Assembly: GCA_949299395.1 (NCBI GenBank)
Contig: CASGAB010000002.1
Location: 113,051 to 177,050, forward strand
Source: an uncultured bacterium
GTDB lineage: Bacteria > Bacillota_I > Bacilli_A > RFN20 > CAG-826
DNA length: 64,000 nucleotides
Direction of reading: 5' to 3'
The notes under the pieces were generated by a model. That model searched no databases. It saw nothing but the letters and a program-made list of their open reading frames with translations, and was not told the origin of the DNA. Both the position numbers and the translations under genes were made by a program. This document shows, piece by piece, positions 13,761-23,700 of the stretch (position 1 is its first letter; each line of letters opens with the position of its first letter).

Positions 13761-14474
13761 ATGGATATAATTTATGGCACTAATTCTGTTATGCTCGCTT
13801 TAGATGCAAATCGAGTAAAAAAACTAATAATCTCAAGTGATTATTCGAATGACAAATTATTAAAGCTAGCAAAAGAGAAAAAAGTTGAGGTTTCCAAATT
13901 ATCGAAAAAAGAGCTCGACTCTTTATCTAAAGGAAAAAATTCTCAAGGAATCGTTGCTTATATTATTCCTTATAAGACTTATACTTTAGAAGAAATTTTA
14001 AAGACTCCAACTGATAGTACAGAACATAGGATCGTAGCAATTTTAGATGAATTGACCGATCCAAACAATTTAGGAGCGATTATTAGAAGCGCCGAAATAT
14101 TTTGCGTAGATTCGATTATTTATAAGAAAAATAATTCTGTATCACTATCTCCATTGGTCGCAAAAATAGCTTCTGGAGCATTAAATTATATTAGATGCTG
14201 CGAAGTTACTAATCTTTCTAGAACTATCGAGACGTTAAAAGATAATAAATTCTGGGTATATGGATTAGATGGGAATGCAAAAATAACCATTGACCAAATT
14301 GATAAAAGTACGAATATTTGCATCGTTATTGGCTCAGAAGGTAAAGGTATTTCTAGATTGGTTAAGGAAAATTGCGATGAATTAGTCAAGATTCCTCAAC
14401 TTGGCCACACCCCTTGCCTAAATGCATCTAATGCAGCAGCAATAGCATTTTATGAATTAAGAAGAAAACAATAG
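13761..14474 (+). CDS. rlmB: 23S rRNA (Gm2251) 2'-O-methyltransferase, SpoU/TrmH family (RlmB/YacO-like).
   Basis: SpoU-type motifs (ILDELTDPNNLGAIIRSA, IVIGSEGKGIS); conserved position after cysS. Confidence 0.75.
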   Translation: MDIIYGTNSVMLALDANRVKKLIISSDYSNDKLLKLAKEKKVEVSKLSKKELDSLSKGKNSQGIVAYIIPYKTYTLEEILKTPTDSTEHRIVAILDELTDPNNLGAIIRSAEIFCVDSIIYKKNNSVSLSPLVAKIASGALNYIRCCEVTNLSRTIETLKDNKFWVYGLDGNAKITIDQIDKSTNICIVIGSEGKGISRLVKENCDELVKIPQLGHTPCLNASNAAAIAFYELRRKQ

Positions 14475-14499
14475 TCCTCCATCTAGCGAGGACTTTTAT

Positions 14500-15093
14500 A
14501 TGAAAGATACAGTTTATATTCAAGCTAAACTTGGAGATTCTCATTCACAAAAATTATTATTTGATCATTTTGTGAATATTTCTAAACCAATCACTTACAA
14601 ACATTCAAAAAGTAATAAAAACACTGGAGGAATACCTCCGATTGATTTAGAAACATTAATTATCGAAGCTTACGAAACTATTTTGTTTAGCAGTGAAATT
14701 CACTATAAAGCTGATGAATTCTTTAAATATCTTTATATTCAAAGAATCAAAGATTATTTTAGAAAGAAGCTTAGAAAAGAAGAACTTCTAAAAAAATATG
14801 CTGAAGATAATTATTTCGAGAAAACTGAAGTAATCAATAACACCACAATTTATGAACAAAATTATTCAAATGGTCATGAGCTTATTGATGTAATTTTAGA
14901 TGATAAGAAAGCAGGCTTAACTGAGTTAGAAAAAAGAATACTTTCAATGTTTTTAAAATCCTTCACAGTTGAAGAAATTTCTTCGATTTTATCTATCTGT
15001 TATTCTCAAGTTTTCCGTAAACTAAGAAACGCTCAAAAAAAGTGCAAAAATTATATCGAAAAATATTTGCCTGATTTACCACCAAATAAGTGA
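14500..15093 (+). CDS. sigH: Sigma-70-family sigma factor, SigH-like.
   Basis: Sits in the sigH slot (rlmB, x, rpmG, secE, nusG). Alignable by eye to B. subtilis SigH region 2 (LGDS...) and the region 4 HTH (LTELEKRILSMFL...EEISSIL...VFRKLRNAQKK). Confidence 0.55.
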   Translation: MKDTVYIQAKLGDSHSQKLLFDHFVNISKPITYKHSKSNKNTGGIPPIDLETLIIEAYETILFSSEIHYKADEFFKYLYIQRIKDYFRKKLRKEELLKKYAEDNYFEKTEVINNTTIYEQNYSNGHELIDVILDDKKAGLTELEKRILSMFLKSFTVEEISSILSICYSQVFRKLRNAQKKCKNYIEKYLPDLPPNK

Positions 15094-15100
15094 AAAACAT

Positions 15101-15129
15101 TTGACAATAGCCGTTTGTTTCTCTATATT
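15101..15129 (+). promoter_or_regulatory. Sigma-A-type promoter (TTGACA, 17 bp, TATATT) ahead of rpmG-secE-nusG.
   Basis: Seen in sequence. Confidence 0.45.
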
Positions 15130-15163
15130 TTTTATAGTTTGTATGTTATAAATAATAATTGTT

Positions 15164-15313
15164 ATGAGAAAAAAAGTTATTTTAATATGCAGCGAATGTT
15201 TAGCTAGAAATTATACTACAACAAAAAAAGAAGAAGATCGTGATACTCGTATTGAGTTAAAAAAGTTCTGTCCTCGTTGTAATAAGTACACCATTCACAA
15301 AGAATCAAAATAG
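15164..15313 (+). CDS. rpmG: 50S ribosomal protein L33 (49 aa; too short for the ORF track).
   Basis: Hand translation gives [49 protein letters not shown]. It has a C4 zinc ribbon and sits in the conserved slot before secE. Confidence 0.85.
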
Positions 15314-15342
15314 TTAAACAGCTTAAGAAAGGGAAAAAGATT

Positions 15343-15540
15343 ATGAAAAGTATCTTAAGATATTTCAAAGGTGTTGGTAGAGAAGTTAAAAGAATCAAAT
15401 GGCCTACTAGAGAAACATTCATCCCATCGATGATTGTTGTTATTTGTATTGCTCTTTTTGCAGGAATTTTCCTTTCATTAGAAGATTTAGCTGCAGCAAC
15501 AATTCTTGAACAACTCAGAAATGCATTTGCAAACATGTAA
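15343..15540 (+). CDS. secE: Preprotein translocase subunit SecE.
   Basis: 65 aa, single TM, KWPTR motif, gggaaaaag RBS. Confidence 0.85.
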   Translation: MKSILRYFKGVGREVKRIKWPTRETFIPSMIVVICIALFAGIFLSLEDLAAATILEQLRNAFANM

Positions 15541-15561
15541 TTAATTTGAGAGGGGAGAATT

Positions 15562-16158
15562 ATGAGTGAAGAAAAATTAGCTGAAAAGCAATGGTATGCT
15601 GTAACAACATTCATTGGTCACGAAAATAAAGCTGCTGAAAATATTAAGACTAGAATCGAAACTTATGGTCTTTCTGATTATATTTTTAGAGTTATCGTTG
15701 CTGAAGAAAAAGTTGCTTCCATTAATAAAAATGGCGATCCTGTTATGAGAAGAAATAAAGAAACAGGAGAAATGGAACAAAAATATAAAATTTTAAACCT
15801 TTATCCAGGATATGTTTTCGTTGAAATGATTATGACTGATTCTGTTTGGTATGTCGTTAGAAATACCCCTGAAGTTACTGGTATTACAGGATCAAGTGGT
15901 GGTGGTCAAAAACCTACCCCAATTACTTCTAGAGAAATTGAAGCTGTCTTAAAAAGAATGGGTATGGTCGATTCATCAATGTATGATAACTATCATGTTG
16001 GTGATATTGTCAAAATTATTCATGGCACATTTGATGGTGTTGAAGGAACAATTATCTCGATTGATAAGGAGGCTGGAACTGTCAAAGTTGATACAATCTT
16101 CTTTGGTAGACATACTCCAGTTGATGTTGATTTCTCTGAAATTGTTCACATTTCTTAG
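15562..16158 (+). CDS. nusG: Transcription termination/antitermination factor NusG.
   Basis: WYAV N-terminal NGN domain and a C-terminal KOW motif (VGDIVKIIHGTFDGVEGTI); gagggga RBS. Confidence 0.9.
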   Translation: MSEEKLAEKQWYAVTTFIGHENKAAENIKTRIETYGLSDYIFRVIVAEEKVASINKNGDPVMRRNKETGEMEQKYKILNLYPGYVFVEMIMTDSVWYVVRNTPEVTGITGSSGGGQKPTPITSREIEAVLKRMGMVDSSMYDNYHVGDIVKIIHGTFDGVEGTIISIDKEAGTVKVDTIFFGRHTPVDVDFSEIVHIS

Positions 16159-16171
16159 TTTTAAAGAAAAA

Positions 16172-16210
16172 CAAGTTCCTCATTACGGCGGGGAACTTTT
16201 ATTTTTTTAG
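16172..16210 (+). terminator. Rho-independent terminator after nusG (AAGTTCC-N11-GGGAACTT + T-run).
   Basis: Seen in sequence. Confidence 0.6.
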
Positions 16211-16423
16211 AAAATATTTATATATTTTGGTACATTGAAATTCAAAGTTGTTAAATAATTAAATTTCCGATGAATTTCCTATAAACGCATAATTTTTGAA
16301 ATTCGAAAAGGCTATATTTTGCTTTAATGATGCTTTCATCATTAAATAATGGTAAAATTTTTGCATAAGAAAATGGATATTGTTTAGGTAAGAAAAACAA
16401 TATGGTTAATTTAGGTATTGAAT

Positions 16424-17664
16424 GTGATCCACAATCTTTTGCTATAAAGTAGGTGTCGGCCTACTTTTTATTTTTCTAAAATGGATGCGTTTAGAACCAA
16501 TTTATCAGGTTCTATTTGTTGCAAATGTAACTCCTTTAAAACTGTTTTCCCATAAACATGTAAAAGCAATTCAAATGGAGTAAAATCATTTATTGAATTT
16601 TTATTAATTGAATTAATTGCATTTGTTATAGAAATGGCATCTGAATCACATAATCTATCCATTGATACACCTTTAGGTATAATGTACCTAATTAATCGAT
16701 GATTATTTTCCGCCAAACCTTTATCTCCTGATCTATAAGGTCTCGCGTAGAAAACCCTTCCTCTTTGGCGTCCGTTTTCATTAAATTCCATCAAATAGAG
16801 CTGTTCAAATTCGACACCATTGTCACAAATTATTACTCCGAATATTTTGTAATATAGATCGTCACCAAGTCTGTTTCTTATCTCTAAAAGTTTTTCATTA
16901 ACAGCTTGAGCAGTGCAAGATTCAAGCAAGAATACAAATTGAAATTTAATCTTTGTTACGCAAAGGCTTTAAAGACATTTTTTATCGCCTTTTTTTCCAT
17001 GTATAGTATCAATTTCGACAACAATTTTATCTTTATTTTCTTCGATATATTTTAAGAAATCCTCATATTGTCGATGATTTTTGTAATCTTTTGGAATTGA
17101 TACAGACTTTTTATATAGCTTTCTAGCCTTTCTTTTAACACTTTGTTTTAAATCGATAGGTTTAACTTTTAATTTAAGTTCTGAAATTAAATTGTAAATT
17201 TGTCTTTCCGAATAAATACACTGTGGATGATTAACTCGATAATTATGAACAGTGTTTGAATTTAAAACCACCCACTTAAATAAGTCTTCATTAAAAGCAT
17301 CAAATTCATCTTTCTTTCTGTGAATTACTTTTCTCGATTCCGAAATATGTTTTTGTGAATATATTTCTGCTTTTCTAGCACTATATTTGACTTTTCTTTT
17401 GTGACAAACAAAATCATGTTTACAACCATTACAAACAAATGGAAATTTCAAAAGCCTTTCACAATAACCTTTATCAAAGTCATTGTCACTTCTAACTCCC
17501 CAAGAATGATTAATTATTTCTCTGATTAATGTTGTTCTTGGTATACCAGTAAATTCGGTTGCTTCTCGACATGAAATTTTATCTTGAGTTAAACAAGATT
17601 CTATTAAAATTCTTTTGCTATAATCCATAATTCCTCCTTTTGACGCAAAAGAATGTAGATCACA
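16424..17664 (-). mobile_element. IS30-family insertion sequence (~1.24 kb) with ~20-bp imperfect terminal inverted repeats (TGTGATCCACAATCTTTTGC / TGTGATCTACATTCTTTTGC).
   Basis: The IRs at 16424-16443 and 17645-17664 match 18 of 20. The transposase ORFs lie between them. Confidence 0.8.
16468..17628 (-). pseudogene. IS30-family DDE transposase interrupted by one in-frame TAA (16969-16971). The N-terminal HTH part is 16969..17628 and the DDE part is 16468..16968.
   Basis: The two ORFs are in the same frame (699 nt apart). The read-through sequence GDKKCL*SLCVTK matches the IS30 GxxxxKxLLTLVERKT block, so TTA to TAA. The C-terminal part has ICDNGVEF and ENNHRLIRYIIPKG, the IS30 hallmarks. 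Confidence 0.8.
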
Positions 17665-17763
17665 AGTATATTTTAAACGAAATTCGAATCGGATATTATT
17701 TTTATATTTTCGCTCATAATGTTTTTCAATTAATAATATTTATATATTTTTATAAAAATATAT

Positions 17764-17791
17764 TGCCACTTAGAGATATTTAAGGTATATT
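17764..17791 (+). promoter_or_regulatory. Putative sigma-A promoter (TTGCCA, 16 bp, TATATT) for rplK-rplA, followed by a ~90-nt leader.
   Basis: Seen in sequence. Confidence 0.4.
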
Positions 17792-17882
17792 TATTAAGCA
17801 CAACTTTGCTGTGTGCAAATTTTTTGTAGGAGAAGAGCGATTCTTCGCACTACAGTATCTATGTTTAAAGGAGAATTTAACA

Positions 17883-18296
17883 ATGGGTAAAAAAATCGCA
17901 AAGGTTGTTAAAATGGAACTTCCTGGCGGGGATGCAAAACCAGGACCAAAATTAGCATCAGCTGGCGTTGTTATGCCAAAATTCTGTACAGAATTTAATG
18001 CTAAAACAGCCGATAGAAGAGGTGAAGTCGTTCCTGTTATTATTACAGCTTATGAAGACAAAACCTTCGATATGGAAATTAAAACTTCCCCAGTTACAGG
18101 TCTTTTATTAAAGGCTGCAGGTGTTCAAAAAGGTAGTGCTAATGCAAAAACCACAATTGTTGGTCAAGTTACAAAAGCACAAATTAAAGAAATCGCAGAA
18201 TATAAAATGCCTGATTTAAATGCAAACGATATCGACGCTGCATGTAGAATCGTTGAAGGTAGTGCTCGTAATATGGGCATTAAGGTCGTTGATTAA
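17883..18296 (+). CDS. rplK: 50S ribosomal protein L11.
   Basis: Start at MGKKIAKVVKMELPGG after an aaaggag RBS; the ORF-track start at 17811 is an upstream extension. Confidence 0.9.
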   Translation: MGKKIAKVVKMELPGGDAKPGPKLASAGVVMPKFCTEFNAKTADRRGEVVPVIITAYEDKTFDMEIKTSPVTGLLLKAAGVQKGSANAKTTIVGQVTKAQIKEIAEYKMPDLNANDIDAACRIVEGSARNMGIKVVD

Positions 18297-18316
18297 TTTT
18301 GAAGGAGTAGATAAAG

Positions 18317-18997
18317 ATGAAACACAGTAAGAAATATCAAGCTGCTTTAAAATTAGTTGATAAGACAAAATCTTATACAGTTAAAGAAGCAGTCGAAGTT
18401 ATCGGAAAAACATCAACTACAAAGTTTGATGCATCAGTTGGAATTTCATTCAACTTAAATATCAATACAAAATCTGCTGATCAACAAATCAGAGGTACAG
18501 TTATTCTTCCAGCAGGTACAGGTAAAAACGTTAGAGTTTGTGCTATTACTTCAAAAGCTGATGAAGCTAAAGCTGCAGGTGCAGATTTTGCAGGTGGTAA
18601 AGAATTATTAGAAAAAATTTCTAATGAAAAATGGTTTGACTTTGATGTCATGTGTGCAACTCCAGAAATGATGGGTGAAATCGGTAAATTAGGCCGTGTC
18701 TTAGGTCCTAAAGGATTAATGCCAAACCCAAAAACTGGTACAGTTGGTCCAGACATTACAAAAATGGTCACTGAACTTAAAGCTGGTAAAGTTGAATACC
18801 GTGCTGATAAAGACGGTAACGTTAACTTAGCAGTTGGTAAATGTTCATTCGAACCAGCAAAACTTGAAGAAAACGTTAACGCTGTTGTTAACCAAATTTT
18901 AAAAGTTAGACCAGCAAGTGTTAAAGGTGTTTATGTTAAATCATGCCACCTCGTCACAACAATGGGTCCATCAATTAAATTAGCAATTGGTGACTAA
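18317..18997 (+). CDS. rplA: 50S ribosomal protein L1.
   Basis: 226 aa with L1 motifs; gaaggag RBS. Confidence 0.9.
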
Positions 18998-18999
18998 TT

Positions 19000-19131
19000 A
19001 AATTTGTTTTGAAGGATAAATATACCAAAGACAGTAACGGGCTAGTCCTTAATAATGTTACCGAGGTTAATTAATATAAATAAATATATCAACCTTATGT
19101 ATATATATCCTCAATATATAGGAGGTAAAAG
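19000..19131 (+). promoter_or_regulatory. Possible L10-leader-type autoregulatory mRNA leader ahead of rplJ-rplL.
   Basis: 132-nt leader with hairpin GTAAC-N18-GTTAC. Its position matches the Firmicute L10 leader, but the consensus was not verified. Confidence 0.3.
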
Positions 19132-19617
19132 ATGAATCAAGACGTCTTAAAGGAAAAAGAAGGTGTCGTTGGTGAAGTTAAAGACCTTGTTAATGAAAAT
19201 GGTAACTTTGTTATCTGCGAATACCGTGGATTAACAGTTGCTGAAATTTCTACATTAAGAAGAGAGTTAACTAAACATGAAGCAAAAGCTAATGTTTACA
19301 AAAATTCATTAGTTTCAAGAGCTTTAAAAGATGATTATGAAGATCTTGAAAATTATTTAACAGGACCAAATATTTACATTTTCTTAAAAGATCCAACTAA
19401 CGGTTCTTTAAAAGCAATCTCAAAATTTGCTAGAAGAAACGACAATTTCGTCATCAAAGGTGGCGTTATCGATGGAAATGTCAAAGATGCAGCTTACATT
19501 AAAACTCTCGCATCATTACCATCAAAAGAAGGACTTGTTTCTATGTTATTAAGCGTATTACAAGCTCCAATGAGAAACTTAGCTTACAGCTTATCTCAAG
19601 TAAGCGAAAAGAAGTAA
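19132..19617 (+). CDS. rplJ: 50S ribosomal protein L10.
   Basis: 161 aa; taggagg RBS. Confidence 0.9.
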   Translation: MNQDVLKEKEGVVGEVKDLVNENGNFVICEYRGLTVAEISTLRRELTKHEAKANVYKNSLVSRALKDDYEDLENYLTGPNIYIFLKDPTNGSLKAISKFARRNDNFVIKGGVIDGNVKDAAYIKTLASLPSKEGLVSMLLSVLQAPMRNLAYSLSQVSEKK

Positions 19618-19655
19618 GCAATTGCTATTAACTAATTTAGGAGGAAAAATAATTT

Positions 19656-20030
19656 ATGGCAAAATTAACAAATGAAGAAATTATCGCTGCTGTTAAAGAA
19701 ATGACAGTTGTTGAATTAAATGATTTAGTAAAAGCTATCGAAGAAGAATTCGGTGTTACAGCTGCTGCTCCAGTCGCTGCTGGTGCTGCTCCAGCTGAAG
19801 AAGATGAAAAGAAAGGACCAAGTGAAGTTTCATTAATCTTAAAATCAGCAGGTGCTAGTAAAGTTGCTGTTATTAAAGCAGTTCAAGCTATCACAGGCTT
19901 AGGCTTAATGGATGCTAAAAAATTAGTTGACGCAGCTCCAAGCCCAGTCAAAGAAAACATTTCACCAGTCGAAGCTGAAGAACACAAGAAAGCTTTAGTC
20001 GCTGCTGGTGCTGAAGTTGAAATTAAATAG
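19656..20030 (+). CDS. rplL: 50S ribosomal protein L7/L12.
   Basis: 124 aa, Ala-rich hinge, C-terminal domain. Confidence 0.9.
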
Positions 20031-20050
20031 TTTTAACTAAAGTTTATTTA

Positions 20051-20084
20051 ACCTGCTTCTATATTTTTTAGGGGCAGGTTTTTG
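20051..20084 (+). terminator. Terminator/attenuator after rplL (ACCTGC-N17-GCAGGT + TTTT).
   Basis: Seen in sequence. Confidence 0.5.
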
Positions 20085-20104
20085 CCTATTTAAAGGAATG
20101 CATA

Positions 20105-20698
20105 ATGAGCCATTATTTTATTGAAGATACAACTCTAGCGAAAGATCCAAAAACTATCGATTTTATCGTGAAAAATCACAAAATAATGGTTGTAAGTGAT
20201 AAAGGGACATTCTCTAAATACCGAGTTGATTTAGGAACAAGAATTTTTATTAATACACTCATTGCTTTACCAATAAATGGCGATATTCTGGATTTAGGTT
20301 GCGGGAATGGAATTATAGGAATTTCAATAAAAAAAGTCTTTGAAGATAACGTTAATGTTAGTTTTTTAGATATAAACCCATATTGTGTTGAACTTACTAA
20401 AAAAAGTTTAAAACTTAATAACCTTGATGGAGAAGTTTATCAAGGAGATGGGTTAAAAGATGTTGAAAAGAAATTTAATTTTATTCTTCTAAATTCCCCT
20501 ATATCTGCCGGAAAAGATGTTTGCTATCGTCTATATGATGAAGCAAATAAAAAACTTAATGACGATGGTAAATTACTTATTGTCATTAGGAAAGACAAAG
20601 GCGCTTTATCTCATAAAAAATATCTGGAAACGATATTTAAAAACGTTGAGTTATTAGAAAAAGAGAAAGGTTACTTTGTTATAGAATCATGGAATTAA
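20105..20698 (+). CDS. ybxB: Class I SAM-dependent methyltransferase, YbxB/RsmC-like small rRNA methyltransferase.
   Basis: DLGCGNGIIG SAM motif I; conserved position between rplL and rpoB. Confidence 0.7.
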   Translation: MSHYFIEDTTLAKDPKTIDFIVKNHKIMVVSDKGTFSKYRVDLGTRIFINTLIALPINGDILDLGCGNGIIGISIKKVFEDNVNVSFLDINPYCVELTKKSLKLNNLDGEVYQGDGLKDVEKKFNFILLNSPISAGKDVCYRLYDEANKKLNDDGKLLIVIRKDKGALSHKKYLETIFKNVELLEKEKGYFVIESWN

Positions 20699-20713
20699 GA
20701 AAAGGAGAAAGTA

Positions 20714-23700
20714 ATGAAATCATATAAAGATTATCCAAGACTTAATAATGATCGTATTAATTTTTCAAAAATTAGTGGTCATTTAGACTTACCTTATTTA
20801 TGTGAAATTCAAACTGATTCATATCGCTCTTTCTTAAAAGAGGGTATCGATGAAGTCTTCAGAGACGTTTTCCCAATCGTTTCAAATAACGAAAAAATGT
20901 CTTTAGAATATGTTGATTTTAGAATTGAAGAACCAAAATTTACTGCTCTTCAATGTAAAGAGAAAGATTTAACATATAGCGCTCCATTAACTGTAAATCT
21001 TGCATTAGTTGATCAAGAAAACAAAGGACAAGTTATTAAAAGCGACGTTTTCATGGGTGATATCCCTTTAATGACTGATAGTGGTACATTCATTGTTAAC
21101 GGTGCTGAAAGAGTCATTGTTTCTCAAATCGTCAGATCTCCAGGTGCATATTTATCAAAAACTATGGATCCAAAAAACGGTATTTATGTTTATAATGCTG
21201 ACCTTATTCCTGGTAGAGGAACATGGTTAGAATTTGAAAGTGATACTAAAGGTTTTTTATGGGTAAGAATTGATAGACAAAGAAAAATGCCTGCAACAAT
21301 TTTACTTAAGGCTTTAGGTTTCACAACTGAAAAAGATATCAATCGTTTATTTGGCGAAAGAGAAGTTTTATCAAAGACTTGGGAAAAAGATATTGTTAAA
21401 GCTGAAACAACATCAAAATCACTTGAAATTGCTGCTTTAACATACATTTTCACAAAATTAAAACCAGGCGAACCATTCACTGATGAAGGTGTTCATACCT
21501 TTATGATTCAAAAATTCTTTGATGAAAAAAGATATGATTTAGGTAGAGCTGGTAGATTTAAATATAAAAACAAGTTAGGAATCTATAACCGTTTAGTTAA
21601 TAGAATCCTTGCTGAAGATTTAATCGATGCTAATGGCGAAGTTAAATATAGTAAAAATACTCTTTTAACAAGAGAAATGGTTGAAGAACTTCAAAATGAA
21701 GAATTCTTTGAACAAGGTGCTCATCAACATGTTTTAAAAGTTAATGAGAAACTTGATACAAATAGTATTGTTAACATCGTCAAAGTTTATAACAACGAAA
21801 ACAAAGAATTAGTTTCAAACGTTATTGGTACTGATTTAAATTTAAAAGTTTCAAGAGTTACAATCTCTGATATTGTTGCTATTTTCTCATACTTCTTAAA
21901 TTTAATGGATGGTTTTGGTGGAGTTGATGATATCGACCATTTATCAAACAGAAGAATTAGATGTGTTGGTGAACTTATTCAAACTCAATTTAGAATTGGT
22001 TTAACCAAAATGGCTAAGAGTGTTACTCAAAAAATGTCTATTACTACTGGTGATAACTTAAAAGAAGTTACGCCAAAAAGTTTAGTTAATATTAGACCTT
22101 TAGCTTCTGCAATTAGAGAATTCTTTGCTTCTTCACAACTTTCTCAATTCATGGATCAAACAAATCCACTTGCTGAATTAGCAAATAAAAGAAGAATCTC
22201 TGCATTAGGTCCAGGTGGTATTACAAGAGATAGAGCTTCTATGGAAGTCCGTGACGTTCACTTTACTCACTATGGAAGAATTTGTCCTATTGAAACACCT
22301 GAAGGTCAAAACATCGGTTTAATTAATAACCTTTCAACATATGCAAAGGTTGATAAATACGGATTTATTGAAACTCCATATAGAAGAGTTGATAAAGAAA
22401 CCGGAAAAATCAGCGAAGAAACAGAATATTTTTCAGCTGCTGATGAAAATAACCACTATATCGCTCAAGCAACAAGAGAAGATATTAAAGACGGTTATTT
22501 AGTTGGAGATAGAGTTGTTGCAAGATATAATGGCCAAAACGTTTTAGTTGATAGACACGAAGTTGATTTCATTGATGAATCACCAATGCAAATCGTCTCT
22601 GTTGCTACAGCTTGTATTCCATTCCTTGAAAACGATGATAACCACAGAGCTTTAATGGGTGCTAACATGCAACGTCAAGCATTACCTCTTTTAAGACCTA
22701 ATGCACCATATATTGGTACAGGTTTAGAAAGTAAAATTGCTCATGACTGTGGTTTAGCGGTTGTTGCTGTTGATGATGGTGTTGTTACTTACAGCGATGC
22801 TAAAGAAATTAGAGTCATGGAAAAAGGTAATAACGAAAGAACCTATCATTTACAAAAATTTGAAAGAAGTAACCAAGGAACATGTATTAACCAAACATCA
22901 ATTGTTAAAGTTGGTCAAAAAGTTAAAAAAGGCGCTATTATCGCTGATGGTCCTTCAATGCAAAATGGTGATTTAGCATTAGGTCAAAACGTTACTATCG
23001 CATTCATGACTTGGGAAGGTTATAACTATGAAGATGCTGTCATTATGTCAGATCGTTTAGTTAAAGAAGACGTTTATACAACTATCCATATTGAACAATA
23101 TGAAGTTGAATGTCGTGAAACTAAAAACGGTAAAGAAATGATTACAGCTGATGTCCCTAACATCGGTGAAAAAGGTAAAGTTAACCTTGATGAAGACGGT
23201 ATTGTTATTGTTGGTACTGATGTTAAAGAAGGAGATATTTTAGTTGGTAAAGTTACTCCAAAAGGACAAAGCGAACCTACACCAGATCAAAAATTATTAG
23301 ATGCTATCTTTGGTGATAAATCAAAAGATGGTAAAGATACATCTCTTAGAGTTCCTCACGGAGGTGCTGGTACTGTTTTAGCAGTTAAAGTATTCTCAAG
23401 AGAAAATAAAGATGAACTTTCTCCAGGCGTTATTAAGAAAATCAGAGTTTATATCGTTCAAAAGAGAAAGATTTCTGAAGGTGATAAGATGTCAGGTAGA
23501 CACGGTAATAAAGGTGTTATTTCCTGTATCGTACCTCAAGAAGATATGCCGTTTATGGAAGATGGTACACCAGTTGATATTTTATTAAATCCTCAAGGTG
23601 TTCCTTCCCGTATGAACATCGGTCAAGTTCTTGAAGTCCATTTAGGTATGGCTTGTAAAAAACTTGGTGGTGTAAAAGTTGCAACTCCTGTCTTTGATGG

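Follow-up and report, generated by a model that had tools for sequence, protein, structure and literature searches.

What kind of DNA has come to separate nusG from rplK in an uncultured gut lineage of the Bacilli, where exactly does it begin and end, and is it still active or of any use to its host? These questions arise from a stretch of 64,000 nucleotides (nt) of contig CASGAB010000002.1 (assembly GCA_949299395.1; the whole stretch is called the window below, with its first letter as position 1), in which the two genes are separated by 1724 nt of non-ribosomal DNA. A first reading of the bare sequence, here called the original prediction, had placed at this junction a 1.24-kilobase (kb) insertion sequence (IS) of the IS30 family that would be bounded by inverted repeats of 20 base pairs (bp) and disabled by a single stop codon in its transposase gene. 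We consider it very likely that the locus instead contains a 1506-bp copy of an IS30-family element that sits in the nusG-rplK spacer within a target duplication of 15–16 bp, was inactivated recently by a TTA-to-TAA change, and carries the 20-bp repeats as an inner pair. The features that define the element and its two nested pairs of repeats are the following:

16229 to 17734, minus strand (the transposase strand): complete IS30-family element of 1506 bp, delimited by homology to related elements and by end alignments
16213 to 16228, no strand assigned: left copy of the target-site duplication, AATATTTATATATTTT, 15–16 bp with the junction ambiguous by 1 nt
17735 to 17750, no strand assigned: right copy of the target-site duplication, an exact 16-nt repeat of the left copy
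17714 to 17734, minus strand: 5′ terminal inverted repeat, (T)ATTAATTGAAAAACATTATG, from end comparison, containing a −35-like TTGAAA
16229 to 16249, minus strand: 3′ terminal inverted repeat, ...GAATTTCAATGTACC, from comparison of motifs and junctions
16423 to 16442, no strand assigned: 3′ arm of the inner inverted repeat (the left repeat of the original prediction), starting 25 nt after the transposase stop codon
17645 to 17664, no strand assigned: 5′ arm of the inner inverted repeat (the right repeat of the original prediction), ending 16 nt upstream of the ATG beside AGGAGG

The outer boundaries follow from homology and duplication taken together. Nucleotide homology to the element that encodes the closest database homologue of the transposase (P0001, loci L019–L021) runs from 17733 to 16293, and homology to the related copies on scaffold_916 of the same assembly (L022) extends to 16220, so that the element passes the inner repeats by 70 nt on one side and by about 194 nt on the other. 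The 16-nt direct repeat AATATTTATATATTTT matches the window only in its two junction copies, with 0.22 matches expected, and both copies lie exactly at the limit of homology to related elements. On the 5′ side, a 98.6% identical copy assembled from another sample (L122, Logan SRR12763692) matches the window only inward of about 17736 and continues into a flank that differs from the rplK flank.

Related copies show the same organization of their ends. On the element strand, the window copy starts with (T)ATTAATTGAAAAAC... and finishes with ...TTTCAATGTACC, and the terminal repeats of the element group are of the GGTTAATTGAAA type and about 14–20 bp long. The P0001 element (1511 bp, ends CCTTAATTGAAAAACA...TGTTTTTCAATTAACC) matches in 14/14 positions of the terminal repeat core and is flanked in L020 by a 13-nt duplication, AAATTTGCATTTA. 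The element encoding homologue P0004 (L024, ends CGTAAATTGAA...TTTCAATTAACC) lies within a 14-nt duplication, TTATTTCTAATTTA, a copy on a Clostridium beijerinckii plasmid with the end ...TTTCAATTAACC within one of 13 nt, GAAAATTAGAAAT, and three copies of a sister group from human gut metagenomes (L060 group) within duplications of 12–16 nt. Ends of the GGTTAATTGAAA type are kept in L022, L024, L044, L025, and the C. beijerinckii copy, and related copies in four different contexts diverge immediately past ...CAATTAACC. Long duplications of variable length (13–16 bp) were found at eight independent insertion sites; the 2–3-bp duplication typical of the family was seen neither in the window copy (15–16 bp) nor in its relatives (12–16 bp). 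An outer-repeat and duplication scan over the whole family was too noisy for family-wide counts and turned up extra internal copies of the end motif.

These results bear directly on the view that the element is a 1242-bp IS bounded by the 20-bp repeats (16423–17664), with the outer 194 nt and 70 nt as host intergenic DNA. The repeats themselves, as the original prediction had recognized, are real and highly non-random, matching in 18/20 positions with zero chance matches in 100 shuffles, and they bracket the open reading frame (ORF) as tightly as in compact IS30 elements. However, no target duplication adjoins them (the flanks are GAA and AGT), while an exact 16-nt duplication is present further out; the outer segments have homologous counterparts at the corresponding places of related elements whose surroundings are unrelated, and they are missing from the empty sites of relatives; and L122 includes the 70-nt 5′ segment while lacking the rplK flank. 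We therefore give almost no credence to the shorter element: The repeats exist but form an inner pair hugging the ORF, and the 1.24-kb size drawn from them was wrong.

The target of the insertion, AAAATAT-TTAT-ATATTTT, has symmetric arms of 7 nt and lies just past the nusG terminator, distinct from its hairpin; palindromes of this kind are common at 29% G+C. As a separate observation, the motif TTTGCATTT recurs in duplicated targets (AAATTTGCATTTA and tttgcatttcacaa, flanks of L020 and L067) and at the 3′ end of L060-type elements (GAAATTTGCATTTACC, L060 2235–2252), which hints that the targets of these elements may resemble their ends. A direct repeat, D4, is a subterminal motif common to both non-coding ends.

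The surroundings of the insertion explain how the interruption could be tolerated. The relevant features of the junction are:

15562 to 16158, plus strand: nusG coding sequence, left neighbour of the insertion, from the ORF list and a Pfam NusG match on the called gene, with homologues 92% identical
16173 to 16208, plus strand: intrinsic terminator of nusG from the terminator scan, a 9-bp stem followed by TTATTTTTTT
16446 to 16476, plus strand: strong intrinsic terminator inside the element, AAAGTAGG..CCTACTTT then TTATTTTTCT, from the terminator scan, antisense to the transposase
17763 to 17791, plus strand: native rplK promoter from the promoter scan, TTGCCA, 17 nt, TATATT, followed by a conserved leader up to the rplK ATG at 17883

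The sources of NusG relatives name them Candidatus Onthovivens, Enteromonas, or "Mollicutes bacterium". In three related lineages, whose NusG is 92% identical and whose genes have the same order between cysS and rpoB, the nusG-rplK spacer is only about 165–170 nt long and free of any IS. It consists of a terminator hairpin, which is analogous to the nusG terminator of the window at the same position though of other sequence, a short AT-rich stretch, a promoter of the TTGATA-N17-TAAAAT type, and a conserved leader. Subtracting the element and one repeat copy from the window leaves a spacer of 202 nt. An insertion into the nusG-rplK junction, as originally proposed, is thus borne out by the otherwise empty spacer of the relatives. 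The insertion point lies about 5–20 nt past the T-run of the nusG terminator, and 12 nt separate it from the downstream −35 box of rplK (17883–18296), the right neighbour; from the 5′ junction of the window copy to this box there are 28 nt. The original prediction had further supposed that the rplK promoter was re-established after the insertion, which was wrong: By sequence comparison the predicted promoter is native, because positions 17739–17882 match promoter and leader of the IS-free relatives at 82–91% identity and the promoter itself is homologous to their TTGATA-N17-TAAAAT promoter.

We propose that the element transposed into the nusG-rplK spacer of this lineage and duplicated 15–16 bp of an AT-rich, partly palindromic target. 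The insertion would have been tolerated by falling between two transcription units, because nusG ends in its own terminator and rplK has its own promoter. The duplicated target keeps 28 nt of native sequence upstream of the rplK −35 box, and the plus-strand terminator within the element would halt any read-through from nusG.

The transposase gene occupies most of the element and contains the lesion that inactivates it:

16468 to 17628, minus strand: transposase frame, 387 codons long, which the stop divides into ORFs of 219 and 153 amino acids
17633 to 17638, minus strand: Shine-Dalgarno sequence AGGAGG of the transposase, read from the sequence and invariant in the alignment of 5′ ends
16969 to 16971, minus strand: in-frame TAA at codon 220, ancestrally TTA (Leu) according to the homologue alignment and to TTA in L122

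When the two parts were joined across the stop, the protein matched the NCBIfam model for IS30 family transposases (NF033563) over residues 78–341 with a score of 97.7 bits (cut-off 80; E = 9e-28), which upholds the family membership first suggested from the sequence alone. The Pfam search of the joined transposase gave no hit at E ≤ 1, including none to rve or HTH_38; the latter domain (PF13936) is carried by a large group of homologues at 28–38% identity and is missing in the four closest ones. Database homologues are at most 64% identical (P0001, 388 amino acids and intact), with P0003 and P0004 at 42%, and we would class the element as a new IS30-family member, as yet without a name, from an uncultured lineage of gut Bacilli. 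In an alignment of 13 sequences, E205, D207, and E307 are invariant and D269 is at least 90% conserved. Judging from position and motif context (DNG.EF, ENNH), D207, D269, and E307 probably form the catalytic triad, of which D207 is encoded upstream of the stop and D269 and E307 downstream.

The TAA is the sole internal stop of the 387-codon frame (context GAT AAA AAA TGT CTT TAA AGC CTT), and the corresponding alignment column has Leu in 11/12 homologues and Met in 1/12. A further comparison comes from L122, which was found via a cluster look-up as a copy with a different flank (L122 1–2224). At position 16970 it has T in place of the A of the window, so that its codon is TTA for Leu (...GDKKCLLSLCVTK). 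At the level of sequence, L122 directly supports the single TTA-to-TAA change that the original prediction had postulated at a Leu codon. TTA is also the commonest Leu codon of the transposase ORF. A genetic code in which TAA is reassigned, or TAA read-through, was considered and rejected: The window (29.6% G+C) follows the standard code of bacteria, rpoB (1203 amino acids) and rpoC (1308 amino acids) are uninterrupted ORFs under code 11, TAA ends 30/42 long ORFs of the genome, and the position encodes Leu in homologues and in L122.

Could the TAA be a sequencing or assembly artefact, with an intact transposase in the real genome? It is a single-base difference in metagenome-derived sequence and was seen at the level of assemblies. 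However, the truncated 219-amino-acid ORF stands on 100% identical DNA in four assemblies, namely ENA ERZ16268271 (the window, scaffold_2), ENA ERZ17292900, and the separately assembled Logan runs ERR10610672 and ERR10610673, and the fragment is listed from an NCBI record as well. Because the TAA is identical in all four, it is not a random read error, and a T-to-A difference in a non-homopolymer context (CTT TAA AGC) is no typical systematic one either. An artefact is accordingly very improbable, and this evidence speaks against the sequencing error that the original prediction had kept as an alternative.

A real stop codon in the window copy appears to be young. About 6.4% of single substitutions in the ORF would make a stop, and one lesion is seen in 387 codons. 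Identity to P0003 downstream of the stop amounts to 85/167 residues in the window copy and 85/168 in the intact P0001. With a single lesion and post-stop identity equal to that of an intact relative, no relaxed evolution is detectable, so that the inactivation looks recent relative to the divergence of the family. The earlier proposal of a recent point inactivation, as opposed to an old decayed copy, is in line with these data, which include no other stop or frameshift. We envisage that one T-to-A transversion (TTA for Leu220 to TAA) inactivated the transposase after insertion. With the first presumed catalytic Asp on one side of the stop and the second Asp together with the Glu on the other, this copy cannot make active enzyme. 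L122 has lesions of its own, three 1-nt indels and a CAA-to-TAA change, which is why we conclude that the two sister copies decay independently.

No intact near-identical copy of the element is on record. Within the window, neither blastn nor tblastn found other copies, and a scan for the end motif gave 9 matches with 9.3 expected. An exact look-up of the repaired protein (Leu220) in the protein collection returned none. The homology search was silent on intact copies as well, which is weak evidence given that it also missed near-identical fragments present in the collection. Among GTDB species representatives, a single-protein scan of contigs found nothing, and an alignment-based scan found one relative at 48% identity and others at ≤33% but no copy of the window element. 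Two related copies with about 60–63% protein identity lie on scaffold_916 of ERZ16268271 (L022 3540–5059 and 7470–8126); both have decayed, as seen from TGA and TAA stops in the reading frame, an internal deletion, and degeneration of the 5′ end. Because these copies carry stops and a deletion, we conclude that the element family is decaying in this metagenome or genome.

The state of these sister copies also matters for the idea that the insertion is an old relic kept for host use, with the 219-amino-acid N-terminal, DNA-binding fragment serving as a regulator or the plus-strand terminator insulating rplK. The N-terminal ORF does retain its ribosome-binding site and start codon, the terminator at 16446–16476 is strong, and a recent survey found IS30-family elements between syntenic gene pairs more often than expected (PMC13548323). 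Against such a role, relatives do without the element, and a nusG terminator is already in place. The N-terminal part shows no excess conservation (identity to P0001 is 60% in the N-terminal versus 70% in the C-terminal part), L122 is decaying in another way, and the two scaffold_916 copies have several stops and a deletion. We regard a retained function for the host as highly unlikely; the element is an ordinary, recently inactivated, and decaying insertion sequence.

If the 20-bp repeats are not the ends of this insertion sequence, what are they? An inner repeat is present in most of the 70 family loci tested, with 0/100 shuffles reaching the observed score, and occupies the same position in at least 30 non-redundant family members. 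The same placement with unrelated sequence is seen in the P0001 element (TACAATTAATATTCTTT), the P0004 element in L024 (GTTTCGCTTTGCT, 13/13), and the L060 group (22/22), in which the repeat is again internal, with 83 nt to one end of the element and 191 nt to the other. Relative to the P0001 element, the window copy has 5–6/10 outer pairs changed on both arms with complementarity kept. The terminal repeats remain near-constant (GGTTAATTGAAA) across transposases that are only 42% identical, while the inner arms are unrelated yet complementary. Mismatches inside the inner repeat, counted on the transposase-sense strand of 34 non-redundant members, comprise 12 of G·U type, 3 of A·C type, and 6 others, and the 12:3 split gives a one-sided binomial p of about 0.02. 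In the predicted transcript from 17695 to 16375, a stem between the 5′ and 3′ arms appears in both the minimum-energy and the centroid fold. Most likely, the inner arms pair in the transposase messenger RNA (mRNA) as a 5′–3′ stem that would limit translation or stability, and such a stem would close the ribosome-binding region once the transcript is complete.

The inner repeats might alternatively be a second pair of DNA sites bound by the transposase, subterminal and used for synapsis or autoregulation, and not an RNA stem at all. Subterminal enhancer-like sequences have been described for IS30 itself. Both arms change together between lineages as expected for the sites of a co-evolving protein, and the non-coding ends hold other repeated motifs, including direct repeats and an internal copy of the end motif past the 3′ arm. 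This explanation seems possible yet distinctly the less probable one, since the terminal repeats stay near-constant across transposases 42% identical to each other while the inner arms do not, and since DNA binding does not predict the strand asymmetry of the mismatches (12 G·U- versus 3 A·C-type). The internal end-motif copy adjoins the 3′ inner arm on its outer side, reading ...TTCAATACCTAAATTAACC in the window (16404–16422) and TTTAAAAGTTGCATTTAA in L060 (2085–2115), and suggests a putative ancestral right end or an extra transposase site.

The 3′ non-coding part, in which the 3′ inner arm lies, contains two further signals on opposite strands:

16350 to 16358, plus strand: extended −10-like box TGGTAAAAT, antisense to the transposase, from reading of the sequence, a conserved block in the alignment that the promoter scan did not score
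16370 to 16403, minus strand: hairpin ATATTGTTT / AAACAATAT with a U-run behind it; the hairpin is part of the predicted fold and has an invariant stem and a variable loop in the window copy, the P0001 element, and L022

The hairpin at 16370–16403 is the likely terminator of the transposase transcript. In the P0001 element the antisense −10-like box reads TGGTATAAT. Some 90 nt separate the TGGTAAAAT box from the plus-strand terminator, and there could be a candidate RNA of about 110 nt that is antisense to the 3′ untranslated region of the transposase, covers the 3′ inner arm, and ends at 16446–16476. A small ORF in the same region (16251–16400, 49 amino acids) was rejected as a gene, as it is uncalled by the source annotation and its strand and position are not conserved in L024.

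Several observations weigh against the picture of a complete, recently inactivated 1506-bp element whose inner repeats act in RNA. The terminal repeats of the window copy are poor (about 11/21 matches), and its 3′ terminal 9-mer departs at two otherwise conserved positions from the CAATTAACC end of relatives, which may reflect some decay beyond the stop codon or variant ends in this lineage. The four assemblies with the TAA agree at 100% identity and probably stem from a single study or population; they exclude random error but are not independent strains. Concerted change of the two inner arms is equally expected of co-evolving protein-binding sites, and the G·U bias is based on just 15 mismatches. 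Finally, all three short-read assemblies are interrupted at the same right boundary, 16349/16350, both at k = 31 and at k = 87. Around this break, two contigs from Logan stop at 16320, and two from MEGAHIT k87 share just the 87-mer 16263–16349. The breaks imply that those samples contain a second sequence that is identical through 16349, over 87 nt or more, and differs from 16350 on, precisely where the TGGTAAAAT box lies.

How does this element compare with described members of its family? Of the kinds described so far, the IS30-type group with long, variable duplications, typified by IS1630, comes closest; this likeness is one of described architecture. IS1630 reportedly inserts beside terminators and intergenic inverted repeats, as the title of Calcutt et al. 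(1999) has it. Like the window element, IS1630 and ISMhom-1 encode a DDE transposase of the IS30 type and belong to low-GC hosts (Bacillota or mollicute-like), and all have a single ORF between a 5′ non-coding part of about 100 nt and a 3′ one of 140–230 nt (108-nt and 140-nt non-coding ends in ISMhom-1; PMC7648426). IS1630 of Mycoplasma fermentans has 27-bp terminal repeats and 16–26-bp duplications (PMC3317919), and is a recognized exception to the short duplications of the family. Duplications are thus long and variable in both cases, at 16–26 bp for IS1630 and 13–16 bp for the element group studied here. The elements differ in size (1506 bp for the window element versus 1377 bp for IS1630 and 1.26 kb for ISMhom-1) and in their terminal repeats (about 14–20 bp of the GGTTAATTGAAA type versus 27 bp of other sequence in IS1630). 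Also, the window target is an AT-rich partial palindrome beside a terminator and not the terminator hairpin itself. The literature on IS1630 and ISMhom-1 that we consulted, the primary description of IS1630 aside, makes no mention of a covarying inner repeat pair.

IS30 measures 1221 bp, nearly all of it taken up by the ORF, and generates 2–3-bp duplications. Unlike IS30, the window element has a 15–16-bp duplication, about 23% non-coding DNA, and a nested repeat pair. It shares with IS30 of Escherichia coli a DDE transposase covered by NF033563, a single ORF, and terminal inverted repeats. IS30 itself transposes by a copy-out-paste-in route through circular or dimer intermediates, and its target choice is biased to palindromic or end-like sequences (PMC9333248).

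Unnamed elements of Clostridia whose genes are annotated as "IS30 family transposase" (C. beijerinckii plasmid NZ_CP107023 and a Butyrivibrio fibrisolvens plasmid) encode transposases about 33% identical to that of the window. The C. beijerinckii copy has the end motif ...TTTCAATTAACC and the 13-nt duplication in common with the window group. Unlike the window element, these elements have a longer 3′ non-coding part with TTACAAA repeats and are annotated as the transposase gene only, and the inner repeat of the C. beijerinckii copy is weak (9 nt). About 8 direct copies of (G/T)TTACAAA lie in the 3′ non-coding part of the latter (L124 1711–2010) and are probably subterminal binding sites.

The sister group from human gut metagenomes (L060–L081) comprises 1517-bp elements with a 33% identical transposase at no fewer than 9 distinct sites. 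At almost all of them, the reverse complement of TTGACA lies 19–20 nt from the 5′ junction and a TGnTAnnAT box 14–17 nt further out; L060-type elements are thus placed upstream of strong host promoters that point outward, at a constant distance and in a constant orientation. A broader interpretation, which we put forward only tentatively and hold to be doubtful at present, is that there is a widespread gut and rumen Bacillota clade of IS30-like elements with an undescribed architecture. Its members would combine 12–16-bp duplications with nested repeats that form a 12–22-bp mRNA stem (an RNase III substrate or a block to re-initiation), and at least one subgroup, the L060 type, would insert at fixed distance and orientation upstream of strong host −35 boxes.

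Two leaders of ribosomal protein genes lie downstream of the insertion. The rplK leader at 17795–17882 (AAGCACAA.TTTG..GTGC...TTTTTTGTAGGAGAAGAGCGAT.CTTC) is strongly conserved with relatives, has no Rfam match, and may be a candidate L1-binding autoregulatory leader. The ribosomal protein L10 leader (RF00557) at 19007–19108, upstream of rplJ, scored 46.8 bits against a gathering score of 44 and was the sole match of the Rfam scan of 14000–21000, which found none inside the element.

For the organism, the insertion between nusG and rplK is neutral and recently dead; it can be used as a strain marker, and it illustrates that this junction tolerates 1.5 kb of foreign DNA while terminator and promoter stay intact. 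For the annotation of the family, it means that a prominent inverted repeat around an IS30-type ORF need not mark the end of the element: Annotating from the inner repeats would here have put the boundaries off by 70 and 194 nt and missed the target duplication. Two leads emerge for insertion-sequence specialists, the covarying inner repeat with its RNA-like mismatch bias and the promoter-proximal insertion pattern of the sister group.

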